Assembly (NCBI RefSeq): GCF_057098645.1
Contig: NZ_CM169472.1
Reading direction: 5' to 3' (one strand)
Length of the DNA: 64,000 nucleotides
The notes under the pieces were generated by a model that saw nothing but the letters and a program-made list of their open reading frames with translations, ran no database searches and had not been told where the DNA came from. The translations under genes were made by a program, and so were the position numbers. This document shows, one piece after another, positions 4,734 through 60,945 of this stretch (positions are counted from its first letter, which is position 1; every line of letters starts with the position of its first letter).

Positions 4734-5207
4734 TTATACGCGAGGGCGCTTGCGGTACAACCATAATCCAGGAATGGAAAGACCGATGGATAACGCACCA
4801 ACAATCGATGAAGCTGTAAGAAAGTTGGTTAACAGGGTAATCATCAACGGTTCGCTGTAACCTAACTGGCTGATTTTTACCGCCGAAATCATTGCGGTAT
4901 AAGCCGATATGCCCGGGAACATAGGGATAACGGCCGCCACGGTAAACACTTTCGGATGCGCCAGATACCAGCGCGACCATTGAATACCAATGGTGCCGAC
5001 CAGCATAGAAGCCATAAAGGTTGACCACTCAATATTCAACCCGCTGGTCATCAAGATCATTCGGGAACCATGACCTATCGAGCCAAGCAGCGCACACCAG
5101 CGTAACGCCCGCACGGGAACGTTGAACACCATCGCAAAGCCGACCGCAGGAATGGCGGCGAGGATCATATCCTGCGCCAATGCAAACAGAAATTCGATCA
5201 CACCCAT
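4734..5207 (-). CDS. yjjB: Inner membrane protein YjjB (ThrE-family transporter subunit)
   Basis: Hydrophobic 157-aa protein starting [14 protein letters not shown]...; paired with yjjP. Confidence 0.85.
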
Positions 5208-5968
5208 CCGCGTAGCCCCCAAATCGTCAGTGCCATCACCACGCCGACGCAGGTAGCCAGTGTCAGCAGACTGGCGATCGCCCAGCGTGCCAGTCCGGTA
5301 TTGATGTGGCCTTTAAACATATCGGCGACGGCATTAATCAACGGAAAGCCCGGCACCAGCAGCAGAACGCTGGCGGCCATCGCAATGGTGGGGGTATTGC
5401 TGAAAGTGGGGAGTTGCAAAAGCAATCCGGAAATGGTGGTGGCGGCGAAAGCGGTAAGGCAAAAGTTGATCTGTGGATGAAGATGACGTTGTGCCAGCAG
5501 CTGGCGGATATACATCGCGGTCGTACTGGCAAAGAAGGTGATGACGGCACCATCCCAGCCACCGTTATTGAGTTTACAGAAACAGGCGCAAGAAAGGCCA
5601 ACCATTAAGGCTACCAGCCATCTTGGGTAACGTAATGGCTGAATTTGGCTAAATCGTTTCTCTACGCCTTTGTAATCCAGCAGATGGTGCTCCGCCAGAA
5701 TCACAATGTGCTGGACTTCAGTCACCACATGCATATTAATGCCGCGATCGTGATTTTTTCGTGTCGATGTCAGGCATTGCCCATCTTTAATAGTTGTCAG
5801 CACTATGGCGTTCGAAGAGATAGAACTTTCGACGCTGTCCATTCCCAGCGCCCGACCCAGTCGTGAGGAAAGCTCATCAACCAACGCGCTTTCCGCACCA
5901 TGTTGCAAAAGAAATAATCCACACTGGATACAAAGCCGTGTTACGGCTCGCTGTTGCTCAGTTTGCAT
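5198..5968 (-). CDS. yjjP: Inner membrane protein YjjP (ThrE-family transporter subunit)
   Basis: Starts [21 protein letters not shown]...; overlaps the yjjB start; the ORF-track start at 6031 is an upstream extension. Confidence 0.85.
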
Positions 5969-6039
5969 AACTCGCCCTTTGTCATAGACGTGATGCGTAT
6001 TGTTCAGATAATGAGAATCCATTTGTATCATGAAGCACG

Positions 6040-6587
6040 GTTGTTTTGCGGTAGGTTAAGATCAAAATTGCGCTGATTAATCCTGGTTATCGGGAGACGC
6101 TTGGTGATAAAAAGCGAATTATCTCTCGCCGTAAACAAACTATCGCATGAATATTATCACTATAATGAATTTATTGTTTGACCTTTACGAGTCAGGATAA
6201 TAGATAACCGGGCGCGTTTTTTAGTGTTAACAAGTTAAAACCATCAGGTTTTATTGAATAAATATTGATTGTGTGATTTTTACATTCTGCGGGAAGAGAT
6301 ATCATTTAATTATAAATTAAATGAATGAGATTTCTGTTTTTCATTAAGTATTTCTAACAACTTAATGTAGATATTTTAAATGTCTCCAGGCTATTTCACC
6401 AGGTTATCATTTGATGCTAACCTTCTGACACATGCAGTGGAGTTAATGTGCAGCAGGAGTATGCTGATATGAAAGTGAATGCAAAGGATAAATTATTCGC
6501 TTAATCTATTAATTTGCTGGAAATATTTAAGGAATGAATATCCTGAATAAACCATCATGATTTATAGACAGTGGATGTGGAGGAAAT
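6040..6587. promoter_or_regulatory. AT-rich regulatory region upstream of yjjQ-bglJ (yjjP-yjjQ divergent intergenic region)
   Basis: ~550 bp strongly AT-rich non-coding stretch between divergent genes, typical of an H-NS-silenced promoter region. Confidence 0.5.
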
Positions 6588-7313
6588 ATGTTGCCAGGAT
6601 GCTGCAAAAATGGAATTGTTATCAGTAAAATACCTGTTATGCAAGCAGGGTTAAAAGAGGTCATGAGGACTCACTTCCCTGAATATGAAATAATATCCAG
6701 CGCCTCTGCGGAGGACCTTACCTTATTACAATTACGTCGTTCCGGATTAGTCATTGCTGATTTAGCCGGTGAAAGTGAAGATCCACGTTCTGTTTGTGAA
6801 CATTATTATTATTTAATCTCACAATATCGGGAAATTCACTGGGTTTTCATGGTGTCACGCTCCTGGTATTCCCAGGCAGTAGAACTGCTCATGTGCCCTA
6901 CGGCGACGTTATTGTCTGATGTTGAACCCATTGAGAATCTGGTCAAGACCGTACGTTCCGGCAATACGCACGCAGAGCGTATCAGCGCTATGCTGACTTC
7001 CCCGGCAATGACTGAAACTCATGATTTTAGCTATCGCTCCGTCATTCTCACTCTTTCAGAGCGCAAGGTACTGCGGCTATTAGGTAAAGGATGGGGCATC
7101 AACCAGATAGCTTCATTGCTTAAGAAAAGTAATAAAACTATCAGCGCCCAAAAAAACAGTGCGATGCGTCGACTGGCAATTCACAGCAACGCTGAAATGT
7201 ATGCATGGATAAATAGCGCGCAGGGTGCAAGAGAACTTAACTTGCCTTCTGTTTATGGAGATGCCGCAGAATGGAACACAGCCGAATTAAGAAGAGAAAT
7301 GTCGCACTCATAG
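6588..7313 (+). CDS. yjjQ: LuxR/FixJ-type transcriptional regulator YjjQ
   Basis: 241-aa ORF with a C-terminal LuxR-type HTH ([23 protein letters not shown]...). Confidence 0.88.
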
Positions 7314-7948
7314 AAAAATGCGTCATGAGTAGTATCGGTATTGAGAGTTTATTCAGAAAGTTTGCGGGTAGCCCTTATAAGCTCCATACCTATACCAGTC
7401 AGGAGTCATTTCAGGATGCCATGTCGCGGATCTCGTTTGCGGCGGTCATTTTTTCTTTTTCTGCCATGAGAAGTGAGCGCAGAGAGGGATTATCTTGCCT
7501 GACTGAACTGGCGATTAAGTTTCCGCGTACCCGGCGTTTAGTTATTGCGGATGATGATATTGAAGCTCGGCTGATTGGTTCATTGTCGCCATCACCGCTG
7601 GACGGTGTATTAAGTAAAGCGTCAACGCTGGAGATTTTTCATCAGGAACTCTTTTTGTCATTAAATGGTGTACGTCAGGCGACCGACCGACTGAACAATC
7701 AGTGGTACATTAACCAAAGCCGGACGCTAAGCCCGACGGAGAGAGAAATATTGCGCTTTATGTCGCGTGGCTACTCAATGACACAAATTGCCGAGCAGCT
7801 TAAACGTAATATCAAAACGATCCGCGCGCATAAATTTAATGTGATGTCGAAACTGGGCGTCAGTTCTGATGCAGGGTTGTTGGAGGCCGCAGATATTCTG
7901 TTATGTATGCGGCATTGCGAAGCAAGTAATGTGTTGCATCCCTATTAA
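7271..7948 (+). CDS. bglJ: LuxR-type transcriptional activator BglJ
   Basis: 225-aa ORF overlapping the yjjQ 3' end, with a C-terminal LuxR HTH ([25 protein letters not shown]...). Confidence 0.88.
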
Positions 7949-7985
7949 TCCGCATGATGCCGGGTTTACTTCCCCGGCAGTGCTT

Positions 7986-8774
7986 TCATTTCAGCGTACA
8001 ATCGCCACATTGCTGCACATCCGGTAAGCGATAACGCTGGCAGCAAGTGCGGCGCACCAGCAGGCCGTCGCGCAGTACCACGGTACGCCAGAGTGGATTA
8101 TCTTCACCGGTAGTAAGCGTTTTCTCAAAAAAGAGGGCATGGCGCAGCGATTCAACCGTCGCCTCGCCGAGCAGTTGCTTCATCTCAGTAAGATACCAGT
8201 TGATCAAATAACCGGTATTACTCCAGATAAGTTTGCCGTTAATCTCTCCCGTTGCTTCTAGTGCCAGCACAACCGGAACCAGCGCCTGGCTGATTAACGT
8301 TTCCATTCGATGCTGCGGCGAATGTGGTGTTACGTTTTTATCTTCACACACATCGACCCAGAAACAGGCGACGCGTCCGGTTTCGTGAAACTCAGCATGG
8401 AAATGTTCCGGCGACACATCTAATGCTTTTTCCTGCGTCAGTAGCGCCAGCATTAATGGTGGTACCATCAGGCCGATATACCACTGCGCCCACAGTGAGA
8501 TCAGCGGTTTGTTCTCGCGGATCATCGTTGGTTGGTTGCGATAGATATGATCGGAATAGACCGCCAGTAGAGAACTTAGAGCATTCGGTGATGACCATTG
8601 CGCCAGCGTCATGGCGTTAAGCGGAGCGGGTTCATCCAGGCGGATAAACTCCAGCAAATGTTCACGATGTTCGGCGATCATCGCCCGTACGGCTTGTGCA
8701 AGCCCAGCATCCTGCGGCTGGAGATGTGTTCGCCAGATGACATCTTCATAGAGCGGTGCGGAACGATAGGCCAT
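7986..8774 (-). CDS. fhuF: Ferric-siderophore reductase FhuF (2Fe-2S)
   Basis: 262-aa ORF ending with the Cys cluster ...RRTCCQRYRLPDVQQCGDCTLK. Confidence 0.88.
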   Translation of the reverse strand: MAYRSAPLYEDVIWRTHLQPQDAGLAQAVRAMIAEHREHLLEFIRLDEPAPLNAMTLAQWSSPNALSSLLAVYSDHIYRNQPTMIRENKPLISLWAQWYIGLMVPPLMLALLTQEKALDVSPEHFHAEFHETGRVACFWVDVCEDKNVTPHSPQHRMETLISQALVPVVLALEATGEINGKLIWSNTGYLINWYLTEMKQLLGEATVESLRHALFFEKTLTTGEDNPLWRTVVLRDGLLVRRTCCQRYRLPDVQQCGDCTLK

Positions 8775-8914
8775 AATCGGGATAGTAATCTAAATGATAA
8801 TGATTGCTAATCCTAGCGATAGGTTTACCCGATAGCAAGGGATTTCTCTGGCTTGCAAATGATAAAAATTATCATATGATATTGGTTATCATTATCAATG
8901 AAAGAGATGAAACC

Positions 8915-9151
8915 ATGTTGCAACGTACGCTGGGCAGTGGCTGGGGAGTGTTGCTGCCGGGATTGCTGATTGCAGGGCTGATGTATGCGGATTTATCGCC
9001 GGATCAGTGGCGGATTGTCATTCTGATGGGATTGATATTGACGCCGGTGATGCTGTATCACAAACAGTTACGGCATTACGTTTTGCTACCATCGTGCCTG
9101 GCGCTTAGTGCTGGCATCATGCTGATGCTAATGAATTTGAATCAGGGATGA
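8915..9151 (+). CDS. yjjZ: Small membrane protein YjjZ
   Basis: ATG at 8915 gives the 78-aa hydrophobic protein MLQRTLGSGWGVLLPGLLIAGL...; the longer track ORF from 8804 is probably an extension. Confidence 0.7.
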   Translation: MLQRTLGSGWGVLLPGLLIAGLMYADLSPDQWRIVILMGLILTPVMLYHKQLRHYVLLPSCLALSAGIMLMLMNLNQG

Positions 9152-9189
9152 AAAATCAAGGAAGAAACAAGAAAGGAAGTAAAGATAAT

Positions 9190-9276
9190 TGGTGCGAGGG
9201 GGGGGACTTGAACCCCCACGTCCGTAAGGACACTAACACCTGAAGCTAGCGCGTCTACCAATTCCGCCACCTTCGC
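9190..9276 (-). tRNA. leuV: tRNA-Leu (CAG)
   Basis: 87-nt sequence whose reverse complement is GCGAAGGTGGCGGAATTGGTAGACGCGCTAGCTTCAGGTGTTAGTGTCCTTACGGACGTGGGGGTTCAAGTCCCCCCCCTCGCACCA. Confidence 0.95.
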
Positions 9277-9310
9277 ACAGTCATCTTACTTTTTTTGATA
9301 TCGCCTCGTT

Positions 9311-9397
9311 TGGTGCGAGGGGGGGGACTTGAACCCCCACGTCCGTAAGAACACTAACACCTGAAGCTAGCGCGTCTACCAATTCCGCCACCTTCGC
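9311..9397 (-). tRNA. leuP: tRNA-Leu (CAG), middle copy with one base change in the variable arm
   Basis: Same 87-nt tRNA except gtaagaacact versus gtaaggacact on the plus strand. Confidence 0.93.
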
Positions 9398-9425
9398 CCA
9401 GTGCGAGCAATATCAACGTGGTTTT

Positions 9426-9512
9426 TGGTGCGAGGGGGGGGACTTGAACCCCCACGTCCGTAAGGACACTAACACCTGAAGCTAGCGCGTCTACCAATTC
9501 CGCCACCTTCGC
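9426..9512 (-). tRNA. leuQ: tRNA-Leu (CAG)
   Basis: Third tandem copy, identical to the first. Confidence 0.95.
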
Positions 9513-9629
9513 ATACCATCAATTCTTAAAAAGAATTGCTACCACGGAGGCGCATTCTAGTGGTTTTCAGCTTTTCGTCAATAGTTAATTATCGACAGAG
9601 GTGTAATTGCTGGAAAAATATCCATCAGG

Positions 9630-9800
<171 letters not shown>

Positions 9801-9812
9801 TCGGCGAGATAA

Positions 9813-10844
9813 TTAACCTTTCTTCGCCTGGAGGGTCATAATGGCGCGATACACCTTGAAGCGCCCGGTTTGCGCGATAACTTCATGGAAGCCAAATGTC
9901 TCATCCAGCACGTCCGGGTAAGGCAGGAAGGCGTTCGCTACAATTCGCAGCTCGCCGCCGCTATTAAGATGACGCACCGCGCCGCGAATCAGCGTTTGCG
10001 CCGCATCCAGGCTGGTTTGCATCCCATCGTGGAACGGCGGGTTGGAGATGATCATATCAAAACGACCTTTCACCTCGGAAAAGACGTTGCTGGCAAAGAC
10101 TTCACCTTCAACACCGTTGGCCGCAAGCGTTGCACGGCTGGCTTCTACCGCCGGGGCAGAGACATCGCACAGAGTGAGACGAATTTTCGGCGAATGGCGC
10201 GCAAAGGCAACCGAAAGCACGCCCGCGCCACAGCCGACATCCAGCACTTTACCTTTCGTGTGCGGAGTTAACGTTGAGAGCAGCAACTGGCTACCGACAT
10301 CCAGACCGTCGCGGCTAAACACGCCAGGCAGCGTTTTGACCGTCAGGCCATCGACGCTGTATTCGCCCCAGAATTTATCGGCATCAAATACCGGCTGTTT
10401 TTCCAGACGACCAAAATAGAGGCCACAGCGACGAGCGCTGTCGACTTTATTCAACGGCGCATAATCTGCCAGCATCTGCTCGGCGCTGCGCACGCCGCTG
10501 CGGTTCTCGCCAACGACAAAAATATCTGTCCCCACTGGCAGCAGAGAAAGTAAATTCATCAACTGGAACTGGGCTTCCGGTTTGTTCTTCGGCCAGTAGT
10601 AAATCAGCGTATCGCAATCTGCGACATCATCCGCCGTGGCGACCAGGCTAAAACGGGCGTTATCCCCCATCTGGCGGCTTAACACCTGCCAATGGTGGAA
10701 TTGCTGGGTATGAGCACGGCTGGCCGCGGTATCTAAACGCGCGGGCAGGTCATCCTGTAAGTCTCCGGCAAACAGAATACGGCTTTGTTCGAAATCATCA
10801 CTGTGACGCAGCAAGACTTCACTTGCCGGGGTAAATGCAGACAT
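9813..10844 (-). CDS. rsmC: 16S rRNA m2G1207 methyltransferase RsmC
   Basis: 343-aa ORF with a SAM-binding motif ([12 protein letters not shown]) and NPPFH motif. Confidence 0.9.
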
Positions 10845-10946
10845 GGAATGCTCCTCAATTGATACTGGCGGCGATTATAGCCATATGTTGGCGCGGTATC
10901 GACGAATTTGCTATATTTGCGCCCCTGACAACAGGAGCGATTCGCT

Positions 10947-11360
10947 ATGACATCCCGACGAGACTGGCAGTTACAGCAACTGGGCATTACCCAGTGGTCG
11001 CTGCGTCGCCCTGGCGCGTTGCAGGGGGAGATTGCCATTGCGATCCTGGCACACGTCCGTCTGGTGATGGTGGCAAACGATCTTCCCGCCCTGACTGATC
11101 CTTTAGTGAGCGATGTTCTGCGTGCATTAACCGTCAGCCCCGATCAAGTGCTGCAACTGACGCCAGAAAAAATCGCGATGCTGCCGCAAGGCAGTCGCTG
11201 CAACAGCTGGCGGTTGGGTACTGACGAACCGCTATCACTGGAAGGCGCTCAGGTGGCATCACCGGCGCTCACCGAATTACGGGCAAACCCAACGGCACGC
11301 GCCGCGTTATGGCAACAAATTTGCACATATGAACACGATTTCTTCCCTCGAAACGACTGA
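10947..11360 (+). CDS. holD: DNA polymerase III psi subunit
   Basis: 137-aa ORF MTSRRDWQLQQLGITQWSLRRP...; co-oriented with and overlapping rimI. Confidence 0.9.
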   Translation: MTSRRDWQLQQLGITQWSLRRPGALQGEIAIAILAHVRLVMVANDLPALTDPLVSDVLRALTVSPDQVLQLTPEKIAMLPQGSRCNSWRLGTDEPLSLEGAQVASPALTELRANPTARAALWQQICTYEHDFFPRND

Positions 11361-11775
11361 TTTACCAGCGGCTTACCACATTGAACAACGCGCCCACGCC
11401 TTTCCGTGGAGTGAAAAAACCTTTGCCAGCAACCAGGGCGAGCGTTATCTCAACTTTCAGTTAACGCAAAACGGCAAAATGGCGGCGTTTGCGATTACGC
11501 AAGTGGTGCTGGATGAAGCTACATTGTTCAATATTGCGGTCGATCCTGACTATCAGCGTCAGGGATTGGGAAGGGCGCTGCTGGAACATCTGATCGACGA
11601 ACTGGAAAAACGCGGCGTGGCGACACTATGGCTGGAAGTCCGTGCCTCAAATGCTGCCGCCATTGCCCTGTACGAAAGTTTAGGCTTTAACGAGGCGACG
11701 ATTCGCCGCAATTACTACCCCACCACGGACGGTCGCGAAGACGCCATCATCATGGCGTTGCCAATCAGTATGTAA
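11329..11775 (+). CDS. rimI: Ribosomal-protein-S18 alanine N-acetyltransferase RimI
   Basis: 148-aa GNAT-fold ORF ([21 protein letters not shown]). Confidence 0.9.
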
Positions 11776-11789
11776 GACAAGGTGGAATA

Positions 11790-12467
11790 ATGAAGTGGGA
11801 CTGGATTTTCTTTGATGCCGATGAAACGCTGTTTACCTTTGACTCATTCACCGGCCTGCAGCGGATGTTTCTTGATTACAGCGTCAACTTTACCGCTGAA
11901 GATTTTCAGGACTATCAGGCCGTTAACAAGCCACTGTGGGTGGATTATCAAAACGGCGCGATCACTTCATTACAGCTTCAGCACGGGCGTTTCGAGAGCT
12001 GGGCCGAACGGCTGAAAGTTGAAGCAGGCTTGCTTAACGATGCCTTTATTAATGCGATGGCGGAAATCTGTACGCCGTTGCCGGGCGCGGTTTCTCTGCT
12101 TAACGCCATTCGTGGCAACGCTAAAATCGGCATCATCACCAACGGTTTTAGCGCCTTGCAGCAAGTGCGTCTGGAACGGACGGGCCTGCGTGATTACTTC
12201 GATTTGCTGGTGATTTCCGAAGAAGTTGGCGTTGCCAAACCGAATAAGAAAATTTTCGATTATGCGCTGGAACAGGCGGGCAATCCTGACCGTTCACGCG
12301 TGCTGATGGTTGGCGACACTGCCGAGTCCGATATTCTCGGTGGCATCAACGCCGGGCTTGCGACCTGCTGGCTGAATGCGCACAATCGCGAGCAACCAGA
12401 AGGCATCGCGCCCACCTGGACCGTTTCTTCGTTGCACGAACTGGAGCAGCTCCTGTGTAAACACTGA
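11790..12467 (+). CDS. yjjG: HAD-family pyrimidine 5'-nucleotidase YjjG
   Basis: 225-aa ORF with the HAD motif FFDADETLF near the N-terminus. Confidence 0.9.
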
Positions 12468-12557
12468 TTGCCTCCCCCCCGTTGATGGGTAAAATAGCCG
12501 CAATTTTTCGTTTTCAACAAGCGCGGCGCGATGCCGCTTACTCAAGAAGAAAGAATT

Positions 12558-12622
12558 ATGACGTTGTCTCCTTATTTGCAAGAGGTGGCGAAGCGCCGCA
12601 CTTTTGCCATTATTTCTCACCC
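12558..12622 (+). pseudogene. prfC: Native 5' end of prfC ([22 protein letters not shown]...) cut off by prophage integration
   Basis: atgacgttgtctccttatttgcaagaggtggcgaagcgccgcacttttgccattatttctcaccc encodes the canonical PrfC N-terminus, then reading diverges into phage DNA at 12623. Confidence 0.8.
12609..12622. other. attL core (attatttctcaccc), identical 14-bp copy at attR
   Basis: Exact 14-bp identity with 55730..55743; chromosomal sequence on the left, phage sequence on the right. Confidence 0.7.
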
Positions 12623-12786
12623 CAATAATTAAGCCCAAATTAAAGCTCTTTTACTCTTTCAAAGTCCTTTCAGTTAATTGAGTGTTAATCATATAACTCA
12701 TTTAATAACATGATGTTATGTGGTTTCTTTAATTGAAAATTCTTTCATGTAACTTTAAATCGATCAGGTTGCTTTCATCAAAAATC

Positions 12787-12843
12787 TGTACATGTGCTTG
12801 TACATAATGTACAAAACAGCAGAGGTGGTTTTTTATTTGTACA
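12787..12843. promoter_or_regulatory. Cluster of four TGTACA motifs directly upstream of int; candidate integrase arm-type or repressor binding sites
   Basis: TGTACA at 12787, 12799, 12808 and 12838; TTGTACATAAT recurs at the attR side (55656). Confidence 0.4.
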
Positions 12844-12852
12844 AGGTGAGTA

Positions 12853-14091
12853 ATGGCGCTGTCTGATGCGTGGTTGCGTTCAGTCGTTGGAAAGGAACGT
12901 GATAAGGTTTTGGTTAAATCCGATCGTGATGGTCTGTCTGTCAGAGTATCACCGAAAGGTCGCGTAGTGTTCCAATATCGTTATCAATGGGCAGGGAAAG
13001 GTGAGCGCCTTGATATCGGAACTTACCCGGCAACTGGATTAAAAGAGGCCAGAGAAGAAGTTATCCGTCTCCGTGGTGAACTCGAGTCAAACCGCAATCC
13101 ACGATTAGTCAAGCAGGCTGAAAAACGAAAAGCTACTGAAGCTATGACGGTAGAGTCTGTGATCCGTGCCTGGTATGAAGCATATTGTGTAAAAAATAAA
13201 AAAGGTTCTGAACAGATACTCCGCTCGTTTGAGCTGCACCTGTTCTCTAAAATCGGGAATATCCCTCACGATGCAGCTACATTGCATGATTGGTTAGAAG
13301 TCCTGGAGCCTCTTAGCACTAAGACTCCAGCAATAGCAGACCGATTGCTAATTAACGCAAAGCAGGCCCATGTCTGGGCGTATAAGAGAAAGCTCATTGA
13401 AACTCGCCCGCTGTCGGATATCACGGGTAAAGATATGGATATCCGTAAAGGTCAGAAGAAACGGTTTCTGACACATGATGAAATTAAAATCCTTTATGCT
13501 GCGATCGATGGTTCTCGAATGGTTCCCAAATACCGGGCCTTCATTAAACTATTGCTGCATTTCGGCTGTCGTAGTTCAGAGCTGATTACTGCCAGGGTGG
13601 ATGATTTTGATTTCATTAATAAGGTATGGACTGTACCGCCAGAACGACATAAGACAGGTGATATAACAGGCGAACCGCTAAAGCGCCCCATTATTGAACC
13701 GGTTGAAGAGCTTATAAAATACGTTATCTCTATGAACAACGGTTCCGATATGCTTTTTACCAAGGAAGGAAGCAAGGAGCCAGTTGGTCGGACATCATTG
13801 CAGTCGCTGCCTTACAATTTAATGCAGTACGCATGGCGGCGTTTGGGGTATCAATTTCCTCATTGGTCTCTTCATGATTTGAGACGAACAGCACGAACAA
13901 ACTTTTCTGATCTTACTGCGCCTCATATTGCTGAAATAATGCTCGGTCATAAACTGCCAGGGGTATGGCAAGTTTATGATAAGAGCGATTATCTAGAAGA
14001 ACAGCGTAAAGCCTATCAGGCATGGTGGGATAGGGTTGATTCGATTCTTACTTACACTAATTTAGGTTCCAACAGACAGCCTATTGAATAA
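12853..14091 (+). CDS. int: Phage tyrosine integrase (P4-type, N-terminal arm-binding DUF4102-like domain)
   Basis: 412 aa; catalytic signature HDLRRTARTN ... LGHK ... VYDKSDY; adjacent to attL. Confidence 0.9.
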   Translation: MALSDAWLRSVVGKERDKVLVKSDRDGLSVRVSPKGRVVFQYRYQWAGKGERLDIGTYPATGLKEAREEVIRLRGELESNRNPRLVKQAEKRKATEAMTVESVIRAWYEAYCVKNKKGSEQILRSFELHLFSKIGNIPHDAATLHDWLEVLEPLSTKTPAIADRLLINAKQAHVWAYKRKLIETRPLSDITGKDMDIRKGQKKRFLTHDEIKILYAAIDGSRMVPKYRAFIKLLLHFGCRSSELITARVDDFDFINKVWTVPPERHKTGDITGEPLKRPIIEPVEELIKYVISMNNGSDMLFTKEGSKEPVGRTSLQSLPYNLMQYAWRRLGYQFPHWSLHDLRRTARTNFSDLTAPHIAEIMLGHKLPGVWQVYDKSDYLEEQRKAYQAWWDRVDSILTYTNLGSNRQPIE

Positions 14092-21702: not shown

Positions 21703-22535
21703 ACAGTTTAACGGCAAATAACCGTTTGTCGCAACAGCTGGTGGTCAGCGTCGCTGAACACCTGTTGTTACGGCATGAATGCAGATTACCAAATCACCTG
21801 GCTGTAAGTAACCACAGAGAACTTTACCTGACTGTGGGGGGCGAGTTGTGCAGGAACTTAACCGCTGGTTTCGTGACGGAAGAGGGCTTTATGTCCATGT
21901 TATTCGTTGGGAGCCAGAAACACAGCGCGTTATCTATCTTCGCAAAGACTACCCGCATGAGTGCTTTAGTCCTTTGTGGAAATTCAGGCGTGATTTTGTT
22001 GAGTGTGAAGGACCACCAGCACATTGATTCTGCCATTCCGGGACGTTACACTGTTCAGGCACCTTATAAAGCGGGTGCCGGGATTGGCGTCCTGGAAATG
22101 TTATCGGCGATATATGACGCGCCAGCGTCTTTTTTATCGTCTGCGTCTGTGCACACCCAAATTATGGTGGGCTGGACGGGGGCACCGAAAGGTGCGCCGG
22201 TTTCCGATAACGCCGGTTACGCCAACCCCGTTCAGTTCACCACCAGCGAAATTGGCGTTTCCGGTGGTGAAGGTAATTCACTGTTATCGGAGGCTGCCAT
22301 CATGGCTACTGTCCCAGCCCTCACTCGTCTGAATGATGAAGACTTACATAAACTCAGTTATGTAACAACTGCACTACGTGCTCTGCGCAAGGTAACTCTT
22401 TCGGATCCGCAGGCGCATCAAGTTCTGGTAGAAACCCTTCTTAACTTGCAGGCTGAACGTATTCGTCTGGCGGATAAGGCTAATTTTCATATTCACCGTC
22501 TCCTGAATATCAGCGGAGGGCATCGTCATGCTTAA
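21699..22535 (+). CDS. Hypothetical phage protein (replication-module position)
   Basis: 278-aa ORF translationally coupled between the CII-like and O-like genes; no motif recognised. Confidence 0.5.
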   Translation: MNSLTANNRLSQQLVVSVAEHLLLRHECRLPNHLAVSNHRELYLTVGGELCRNLTAGFVTEEGFMSMLFVGSQKHSALSIFAKTTRMSALVLCGNSGVILLSVKDHQHIDSAIPGRYTVQAPYKAGAGIGVLEMLSAIYDAPASFLSSASVHTQIMVGWTGAPKGAPVSDNAGYANPVQFTTSEIGVSGGEGNSLLSEAAIMATVPALTRLNDEDLHKLSYVTTALRALRKVTLSDPQAHQVLVETLLNLQAERIRLADKANFHIHRLLNISGGHRHA

Positions 22536-60528: not shown

Positions 60529-60945
60529 TTTGCCCTTCGTAGGCAGCATCCGGCAGTCGGCGCATAATGCCTGATGCGACGCTTAACGCGTCTTATCATG
60601 CCTACAGGTTTGTGCCGAACCGTAGGCCGGATAAGGCGTTCACGCCGCATCCGGCAGTTGGCGCACAATGCCTGATGCGACGCTTGTCGCGTCTTATCAT
60701 GCCTACAAGTCTGTGCCGAACCGTAGGCCGGATAAGGCGTTCACGCCGCATCCGGCAGTCGGCGCATAATGCCTGATGCGACGCTTGTCGCGTCTTATCA
60801 TGCCTACAGGTTTGTGCCGAACCGTAGGCCGGATAAGGCGTTCACGCCGCATCCGGCAGTTGGCGCACAATGCCTGATGCGACGCTTGACGCGTCTTATC
60901 AGGCCTACAAGTCTGTGCCGAACCGTAGGCCGTATCCGGCATGTC
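60529..60945. repeat. Tandem REP/BIME array (four ~100-bp units)
   Basis: Four repeats of ...gcctgatgcgacgctt(g/a)(t/a)cgcgtcttatcatgcctaca(g/a)g(t)ttgtgccgaaccgtaggccggataaggcgttcacgccgcatccggcagt(c/t)ggcgca(t/c)aat... Confidence 0.85.

Follow-up and report, generated by a model that had tools for sequence, protein, structure and literature searches.

The middle gene of a tandem array of three tRNA-Leu(CAG) genes carries a U at tRNA nucleotide 48, the position at which the two outer genes carry a C. We estimate at about 90% the probability that this U is the ordinary allele of leuP, present in the K-12 reference, in the majority of Escherichia coli, and in the middle gene of the orthologous array next to rsmC across the Enterobacteriaceae, and that it represents an old, vertically inherited difference between paralogs defining a second tRNA-Leu(CAG) isodecoder. 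We interpret the base as an old isodecoder rather than as a strain polymorphism or an error because it is found in most E. coli, in other genera, and usually also in leuT outside E. coli. The base difference itself is known from earlier work and unremarkable, and the sole addition made here concerns how deeply it is conserved.

ARAGORN detected exactly three tRNA genes in the window, i.e., the entire 64-kb stretch of DNA that was analyzed, all encoding tRNA-Leu(CAG) and all located on the minus strand. The first gene of the operon is leuQ (positions 9426 to 9512), followed by leuP (9311 to 9397) and, in the final position, leuV (9190 to 9276). A three-way alignment of these genes, each 87 nt in length, revealed 86 invariant columns out of 87, the sole variable column being column 48, with T in leuP and C in leuQ and leuV. 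On the plus strand, this corresponds to an A at position 9350 (leuP) versus a G at positions 9229 (leuV) and 9465 (leuQ). The original prediction of three tandem genes with identical outer copies was borne out by both ARAGORN and the alignment, and the single changed base of the middle copy, which converts a C-G pair of the variable arm into a U·G pair, was found again by the alignment and by ViennaRNA. The three genes obtained the same score of 48.5 bits with the Rfam tRNA model (RF00005; gathering score, 29) and have the long variable arm, folded as a stem-loop, of class II tRNAs. No sign of a pseudogene in the form of disrupted stems, indels, or a model score lower than that of the paralogs was found in leuP.

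The operon is leuQ-leuP-leuV, encoding tRNA-Leu1, and lies between rsmC and yjjZ. According to the annotation of K-12 and to that of the closest genome for window positions 5000 to 14000, rsmC is located upstream and yjjZ/fhuF downstream, the yjjZ open reading frame ending at about position 9150 of the window. In NC_000913.3, leuV, leuP, and leuQ are annotated at positions 4606079 to 4606401, flanked by yjjZ and rsmC, with the same spacing as in the window (28 nt between leuQ and leuP and 34 nt between leuP and leuV). By exact string comparison, leuQ, leuP, and leuV of the window do not differ at any position from their K-12 counterparts, and the leuP-specific U is shared as well, since K-12 leuP (b4369; NC_000913.3, 4606200 to 4606286) has the same T at nucleotide 48. 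All 87 nt of leuP, both spacers, the promoter, and the yjjZ and rsmC neighbors are the same as in K-12, and the differences are confined to the wider flanks, with single-nucleotide polymorphisms on the fhuF side and an integrase-led island after yjjG. The 451 nt between positions 9150 and 9600 are 100% identical to the corresponding sequences of MG1655-derived, O145, C, C600, and other unrelated strains. For positions 5000 to 14000, the best match in the collection of complete RefSeq E. coli genomes reached 99.5% identity (strain C325 and O145:H28-like strains), and only 35 records reached 99%. The lineage of the window therefore has no exact counterpart in this collection and may be Shigella, which is outside the collection. 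Thus, with flanks at most 99.5% identical to complete genomes and an operon at 100%, the window originates from a strain different from K-12 in which the operon is unchanged.

The base had been put forward as an easy check of assembly accuracy or of strain divergence. This use could not be retained: the reference carries the same difference (T in K-12 MG1655 leuP), and a U that is common to K-12, to most E. coli, and to many genera is therefore uninformative on assembly errors or on divergence between strains.

Compared to K-12 leuQ, leuV, and leuT, which encode the major tRNA-Leu1 isodecoder, leuP has the same CAG anticodon, the same class II architecture, and 86 of 87 nt in common, and it shares its transcript with leuQ and leuV. 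The C at nucleotide 48 of these three genes forms a C-G pair in the variable-arm stem, whereas the U of leuP forms a U·G pair. Other E. coli tRNAs offer parallels. Thus, tRNA-Tyr1 (tyrT/tyrV) and tRNA-Tyr2 (tyrU) are two variable-arm nucleotides apart. Like leuP and leuQ, the members of the tRNA-Tyr and val pairs have the same anticodon and differ by 1 or 2 nt outside the identity elements, although they concern other amino acids and loci. The valV and valW genes have been described as "nearly identical" (PMC2190699). The status of leuP as a one-nucleotide exception among the tRNA-Leu1 genes has been stated in print (PMC12472396), and a tRNA-sequencing preprint groups (leuP) separately from (leuQ leuT leuV).

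The region upstream of leuQ has the sequence features of a strong sigma-70 promoter on the minus strand (positions 9554 to 9581), with a −35 hexamer TTGACG (9581 to 9576), a 16-nt spacer, and a −10 hexamer TAGAAT (9559 to 9554), followed by the G+C-rich sequence GCGCCTCC. In a scan of positions 8800 to 9900 for matches to the consensus, and for such matches only, the site at 9581 to 9554 displayed 10 of 12 consensus bases and was joint best among six sites. We take it to be the published leuV/leuQ promoter. The 5′ leader of leuQ contains an inverted repeat (positions 9520 to 9538, minus strand; RNA CAAUUCUUUUUAAGAAUUG) that is predicted to form a hairpin and is paired in the minimum free energy fold of the precursor. 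No intrinsic terminator was found downstream of leuV on the minus strand, consistent with the reported fate of the precursor, whose tRNAs are released from one another by RNase P alone and whose transcription stops at a Rho-dependent terminator after leuV (PMC2190699). Based on this literature, leuQ, leuP, and leuV would be cotranscribed from the TTGACG/TAGAAT promoter and then separated by RNase P.

The two spacers that surround leuP are complementary to each other. The 5′ leader of leuP, in the leuQ-leuP spacer (positions 9404 to 9416, minus strand; RNA UUGAUAUUGCUCG), and its 3′ trailer, in the leuP-leuV spacer (positions 9295 to 9308, minus strand; RNA CGAGGCGAUAUCAA), can pair over 13 bp with a duplexfold energy of −15.4 kcal/mol, a value reached by 1.3% of shuffled sequences. 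The complementarity was preserved across 46 distinct arrays of the Enterobacteriaceae, with 96.8% of the cells paired versus at most 45% when the partner is slid. Covariation is weak, as only two double changes were observed and the score was 0.111, versus 0.095 in shuffles. The helix is therefore best described as a conserved complementarity in the sequences rather than as a proven structure, and it encloses the middle gene regardless of the allele.

In both the C and the U version, ViennaRNA folds the variable arm into a 4-bp stem (nucleotides 46 to 49 with 54 to 57) closed by a UUAC loop. The partner of nucleotide 48 is G55, so that the change in leuP replaces C-G by U·G; in our own assignment of the standard numbering, these nucleotides presumably correspond to positions e12 and e22 of the variable-arm stem, respectively. 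The predicted cost of the U·G pair is 2.9 kcal/mol, both for the isolated arm hairpin (−5.2 kcal/mol for C versus −2.3 kcal/mol for U) and for a hand-drawn cloverleaf (−30.0 versus −27.1 kcal/mol). The U variant would accordingly retain the stem with a weaker pair. This predicted weakening is the one feature that could designate the middle copy as a decaying, nonfunctional tRNA gene, an explanation to which we give very little credence. A single wobble-compatible change is involved, the covariance model score equals that of the neighboring genes, the gene is part of a cotranscribed operon, and its sequence is conserved across families. A truly damaged copy looks different, as illustrated by the leuV gene of strain Nissle, which has lost 9 nt and is not called by ARAGORN. 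Based on the score, the nature of the change, and the conservation, the pseudogene explanation was rejected.

Leucylation in E. coli does not correlate with the sequence or the folding of the tRNA-Leu variable arm, as reviewed previously (PMC9976931). The identity elements recognized by E. coli leucyl-tRNA synthetase are A73 and tertiary elements of the D and T loops, and truncated tRNAs devoid of the arm are still charged (PMC9976931). Since the synthetase does not read the variable arm, the U variant should be charged like the C variant, and by analogy with these identity studies the U isodecoder would also decode CUG like its C neighbors. The original assessment of the change as probably neutral is therefore reasonable with respect to aminoacylation (PMC9976931), but strict neutrality is uncertain in view of the long retention of the base beside nearly saturated synonymous sites (see below).

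The distribution of the alleles was determined in 5,429 complete E. coli records with an 88-nt query that covers the variable site and the leuQ-leuP spacer, such that a match of "≥99%" is an exact match. Queries of 149 nt were unfit for this purpose, since one mismatch still falls within the "≥99%" band. The exact T allele of leuP was present in 4,526 of the 5,429 records. The exact full-length C allele was present in about 108 records (561 minus 453 partial matches), and about 340 records had a full-length match with another difference. The middle gene was scored as absent from about 453 records, in which the query was not matched over 80% or more of its length. Thus, the minority states in E. 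coli are a C at leuP in about 2% of the records and loss of the gene in about 8%. For leuT, which was also counted with short queries (88 and 91 nt were used) that reach "≥99%" only by an exact match, the allele is C in K-12 and T in just 4 of the 5,429 records. One of the four tRNA-Leu(CAG) genes of E. coli is of the U type, and relatives often have two.

The U of leuP is real, because 4,526 E. coli records, each assembled independently, contain exactly this base together with the flanking spacer. An origin of the base in sequencing or assembly, such as mispolishing within the repeat, has a negligible probability in our assessment. Tandem repeats are indeed error prone, and a record labeled "MG1655" (NZ_CP025268.1) displays the reverse change, with a C in leuP resulting in a C-C-C array, together with a homopolymer error in the form of a run of nine G residues in leuV (positions 1113 to 1200 of the extracted locus). 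The array of this record is probably an assembly artifact, and some other C-C-C records may be polishing artifacts. The T of leuP, however, occurs with identical flanks in the K-12 reference and in the 4,526 E. coli records, and the base is found in dozens of other species, leading us to reject a sequencing error.

Several assemblies, including NZ_CP025268.1, contain at least 9 rather than 8 C/G residues in the run located in the T arm and acceptor stem of the Leu(CAG) genes. The run of eight G·C pairs in these genes is a documented indel hot spot (PMC8510543), so that the longer runs reflect either genuine mutations or errors in the assembly of homopolymers.

The C-C-C arrays include those of O55:H7 strains, of enterotoxigenic E. 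coli (ETEC) H10407, of B7A, and of several dog isolates. In O55:H7, which is related to O157:H7, the array has been homogenized to C-C-C. Loss of the middle gene mostly concerns O157:H7, plus a few other strains, and all of the O157:H7 records sampled matched the tRNA body only. O157:H7 strain 611 has, in place of the three genes, a single tRNA-Leu(CAG) gene (positions 1202 to 1288 of the extracted locus) flanked by rsmC and yjjZ. The U copy is occasionally overwritten, giving C-C-C, or deleted, giving the single-gene O157:H7 locus, probably by gene conversion or unequal crossing-over between nearly identical repeats. The array is dynamic within E. coli, with about 8% of complete genomes, mainly O157:H7, being reduced here to one gene for the tRNA that is used most. 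A C-C-C array in an assembly deserves a second look, as it may be real, as in O55:H7 and ETEC H10407, or a polishing artifact.

In Nissle 1917 (CP007799.1), the T allele is present in leuP and in the copy occupying the leuV position, which contains a 9-nt deletion (AATTCCGCC). ARAGORN made no tRNA call for this deleted copy in positions 1203 to 1600 of the extracted locus. In this strain, an IS630 fragment replaces the DNA that precedes the −10 and −35 region of the promoter.

The polymorphism of the site within E. coli (about 2% C and about 8% gene loss) would be the basis for regarding the U as a recent neutral mutation of the strain or lineage and hence as a useful marker of divergence. We nonetheless consider this very improbable, since the window has the majority and reference allele and it is the minority states that are derived. 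In addition, the operon is still 100% identical to that of K-12 even though neither K-12 nor any complete RefSeq genome has the same flanks. A strain-specific polymorphism was rejected, as the T is shared by K-12, by the majority of E. coli, and by other genera.

The distribution of the T allele beyond E. coli was investigated by scanning one genome per species with a 22-mer specific for this allele, which retrieved at least 120 loci; the scan detects T-bearing sites only and undersamples species lacking T. Among the matches listed, ARAGORN identified T in the middle gene of arrays of the type LeuC-28-LeuT-~31-LeuC in E. albertii, other Escherichia, Salmonella arizonae, and Citrobacter. The same array was found, again among the matches listed, in Klebsiella oxytoca, K. 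grimontii, K. indica, K. spallanzanii, and Raoultella, as well as in Kosakonia, Pseudocitrobacter, Phytobacter, Intestinirhabdus, and others. Exceptions were C-C-T arrays in Pluralibacter and Trabulsiella and, among the matches listed, one T-T-C array in Kosakonia arachidis. In the arrays of Enterobacter and Lelliottia, C5 and U49 are found instead in the first two genes. Two-gene arrays were found in the Morganellaceae, with the order T-C in Xenorhabdus and C-T in Proteus and Morganella. Analysis by tblastn revealed that rsmC adjoins the arrays in both the Enterobacteriaceae and the Morganellaceae and that yjjZ is located on the opposite side in the Enterobacteriaceae. The locus is therefore orthologous.

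The T allele is also present as leuT, in the argX-hisR-leuT-proM operon, in most of the genera with C-T-C arrays and additionally in E. whittamii, Pantoea, Morganella, and Xenorhabdus. The leuT genes of Citrobacter, Enterobacter, Klebsiella, Raoultella, Pantoea, Morganella, Xenorhabdus, and E. whittamii thus have the U48 of E. coli leuP, although leuT of these and other Enterobacterales belongs to a separate locus and operon. In K. pneumoniae, E. cloacae, and E. hormaechei, each represented by a complete chromosome or large scaffolds, leuT was the only hit among the matches listed, which implies that the arrays of these species lack T48.

Since the 22-mer selects for T, metagenome contigs were scanned in an allele-blind manner for three tandem cores with a pyrimidine at the variable site, a search that sees only arrays whose cores are otherwise identical. 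Among the 53 arrays retrieved, 49 were C-T-C, three were C-C-C, and one was C-C-T; counted by spacer haplotype, the numbers were 18, 2, and 1, respectively. Based on the adjacent RsmC sequence, Escherichia-like arrays comprised 27 C-T-C and 2 C-C-C. The non-Escherichia arrays, in which RsmC was 84 to 92% identical, comprised 19 C-T-C, 1 C-C-T, and one four-gene array with C in all copies. The metagenome C-C-C arrays contained two spacers of the leuP-leuV type, as predicted by unequal crossing-over.

At the 4-fold degenerate sites of rsmC, K-12 is 46 to 59% identical to other genera of the Enterobacteriaceae and 23 to 45% identical to the Morganellaceae. The C/T/C states thus persist beside freely evolving sites that have reached or nearly reached saturation, which argues against a strictly neutral site, within the limits of a small and related sample. 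A rough calculation of our own, which is based on the rsmC 4-fold values and assumes independence, gave a P value of about 0.05 for retention of the T, the sample being in fact nonindependent. In the Morganellaceae, the C and U isodecoders share G5 and U79, whereas those of the Enterobacteriaceae have A5 and C79, forming an A5·C mismatch. Concerted changes have thus occurred at nucleotides 5 and 79, on either side of nucleotide 48, yet the C/U difference has been kept in the Morganellaceae.

Two readings are compatible with these observations. The U may be a nearly neutral relic that is faithfully copied and occasionally erased, or weak selection may act to keep at least one U copy, a possibility that we place well below an even chance. 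Under weak selection, the retained U copy would be leuP in E. coli and either leuT or both genes in other taxa. Maintenance of the U variant by selection as a distinct isodecoder, because of its stability, modification, processing, or interaction with another factor, would explain why the C/U difference has survived homogenization, and we regard it as possible without being probable. The retention of C-T-C across genera with neighboring 4-fold sites near saturation is in favor of selection, as is the persistence of C/U in the Morganellaceae between shared nucleotides 5 and 79. Change of an outer C to T was almost never seen where the middle gene has T (one T-T-C array among the matches listed), and C-C-C and deleted arrays, which arise repeatedly in E. 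coli, remain at about 2% and 8%, respectively. In addition, where leuP or leuT has a C, the other gene usually has a U: leuP is of the U type and leuT of the C type in E. coli, and the reverse, with U in leuT and an array lacking T among the matches listed, holds for K. pneumoniae. Low mutation rates do not explain the conservation, since these genes are mutational hot spots (PMC8510543).

Several observations speak against selection. No U seems to be present at leuP of O157:H7, O55:H7, and ETEC H10407, and leuT is almost always C in E. coli; successful lineages can therefore dispense with the U at leuP. In E. coli leucylation, no factor is known to read the variable arm (PMC9976931). Finally, the cross-species sample is small, phylogenetically nonindependent, and partly ascertained on the T itself, with a P value of only about 0.05. 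We consider it unlikely that the U·G tRNA-Leu(CAG) differs in function from the C-G version and that the Enterobacterales have retained it, as leuP and/or leuT, from a time preceding the split of the Enterobacteriaceae and Morganellaceae, despite concerted evolution and the frequent conversion and deletion of the array. If true, this would point to an unrecognized role for the variable-arm stem of the most abundant tRNA of the cell. Retention of C-U-C raises the question of whether bacterial isodecoders that differ in one variable-arm pair are really equivalent.

Other features of the window are located at various distances from the operon. An open reading frame encoding 412 amino acids (positions 12853 to 14091, plus strand), located just after yjjG, corresponds to an annotated tyrosine recombinase gene of the closest genomes; the K-12 gene at the position after yjjG is presumably prfC. 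About 8 kb past this open reading frame, Rfam detected isrK and C4 antisense RNA (positions 22059 to 22247, plus strand). The recombinase and these RNA hits suggest an integrated prophage-like island. Repeats of the REP/BIME type (Rfam naRNA4) were found between the leuQ promoter and rsmC (positions 9652 to 9734, plus strand), and three more naRNA4-type repeats are clustered at positions 60625 to 60905.
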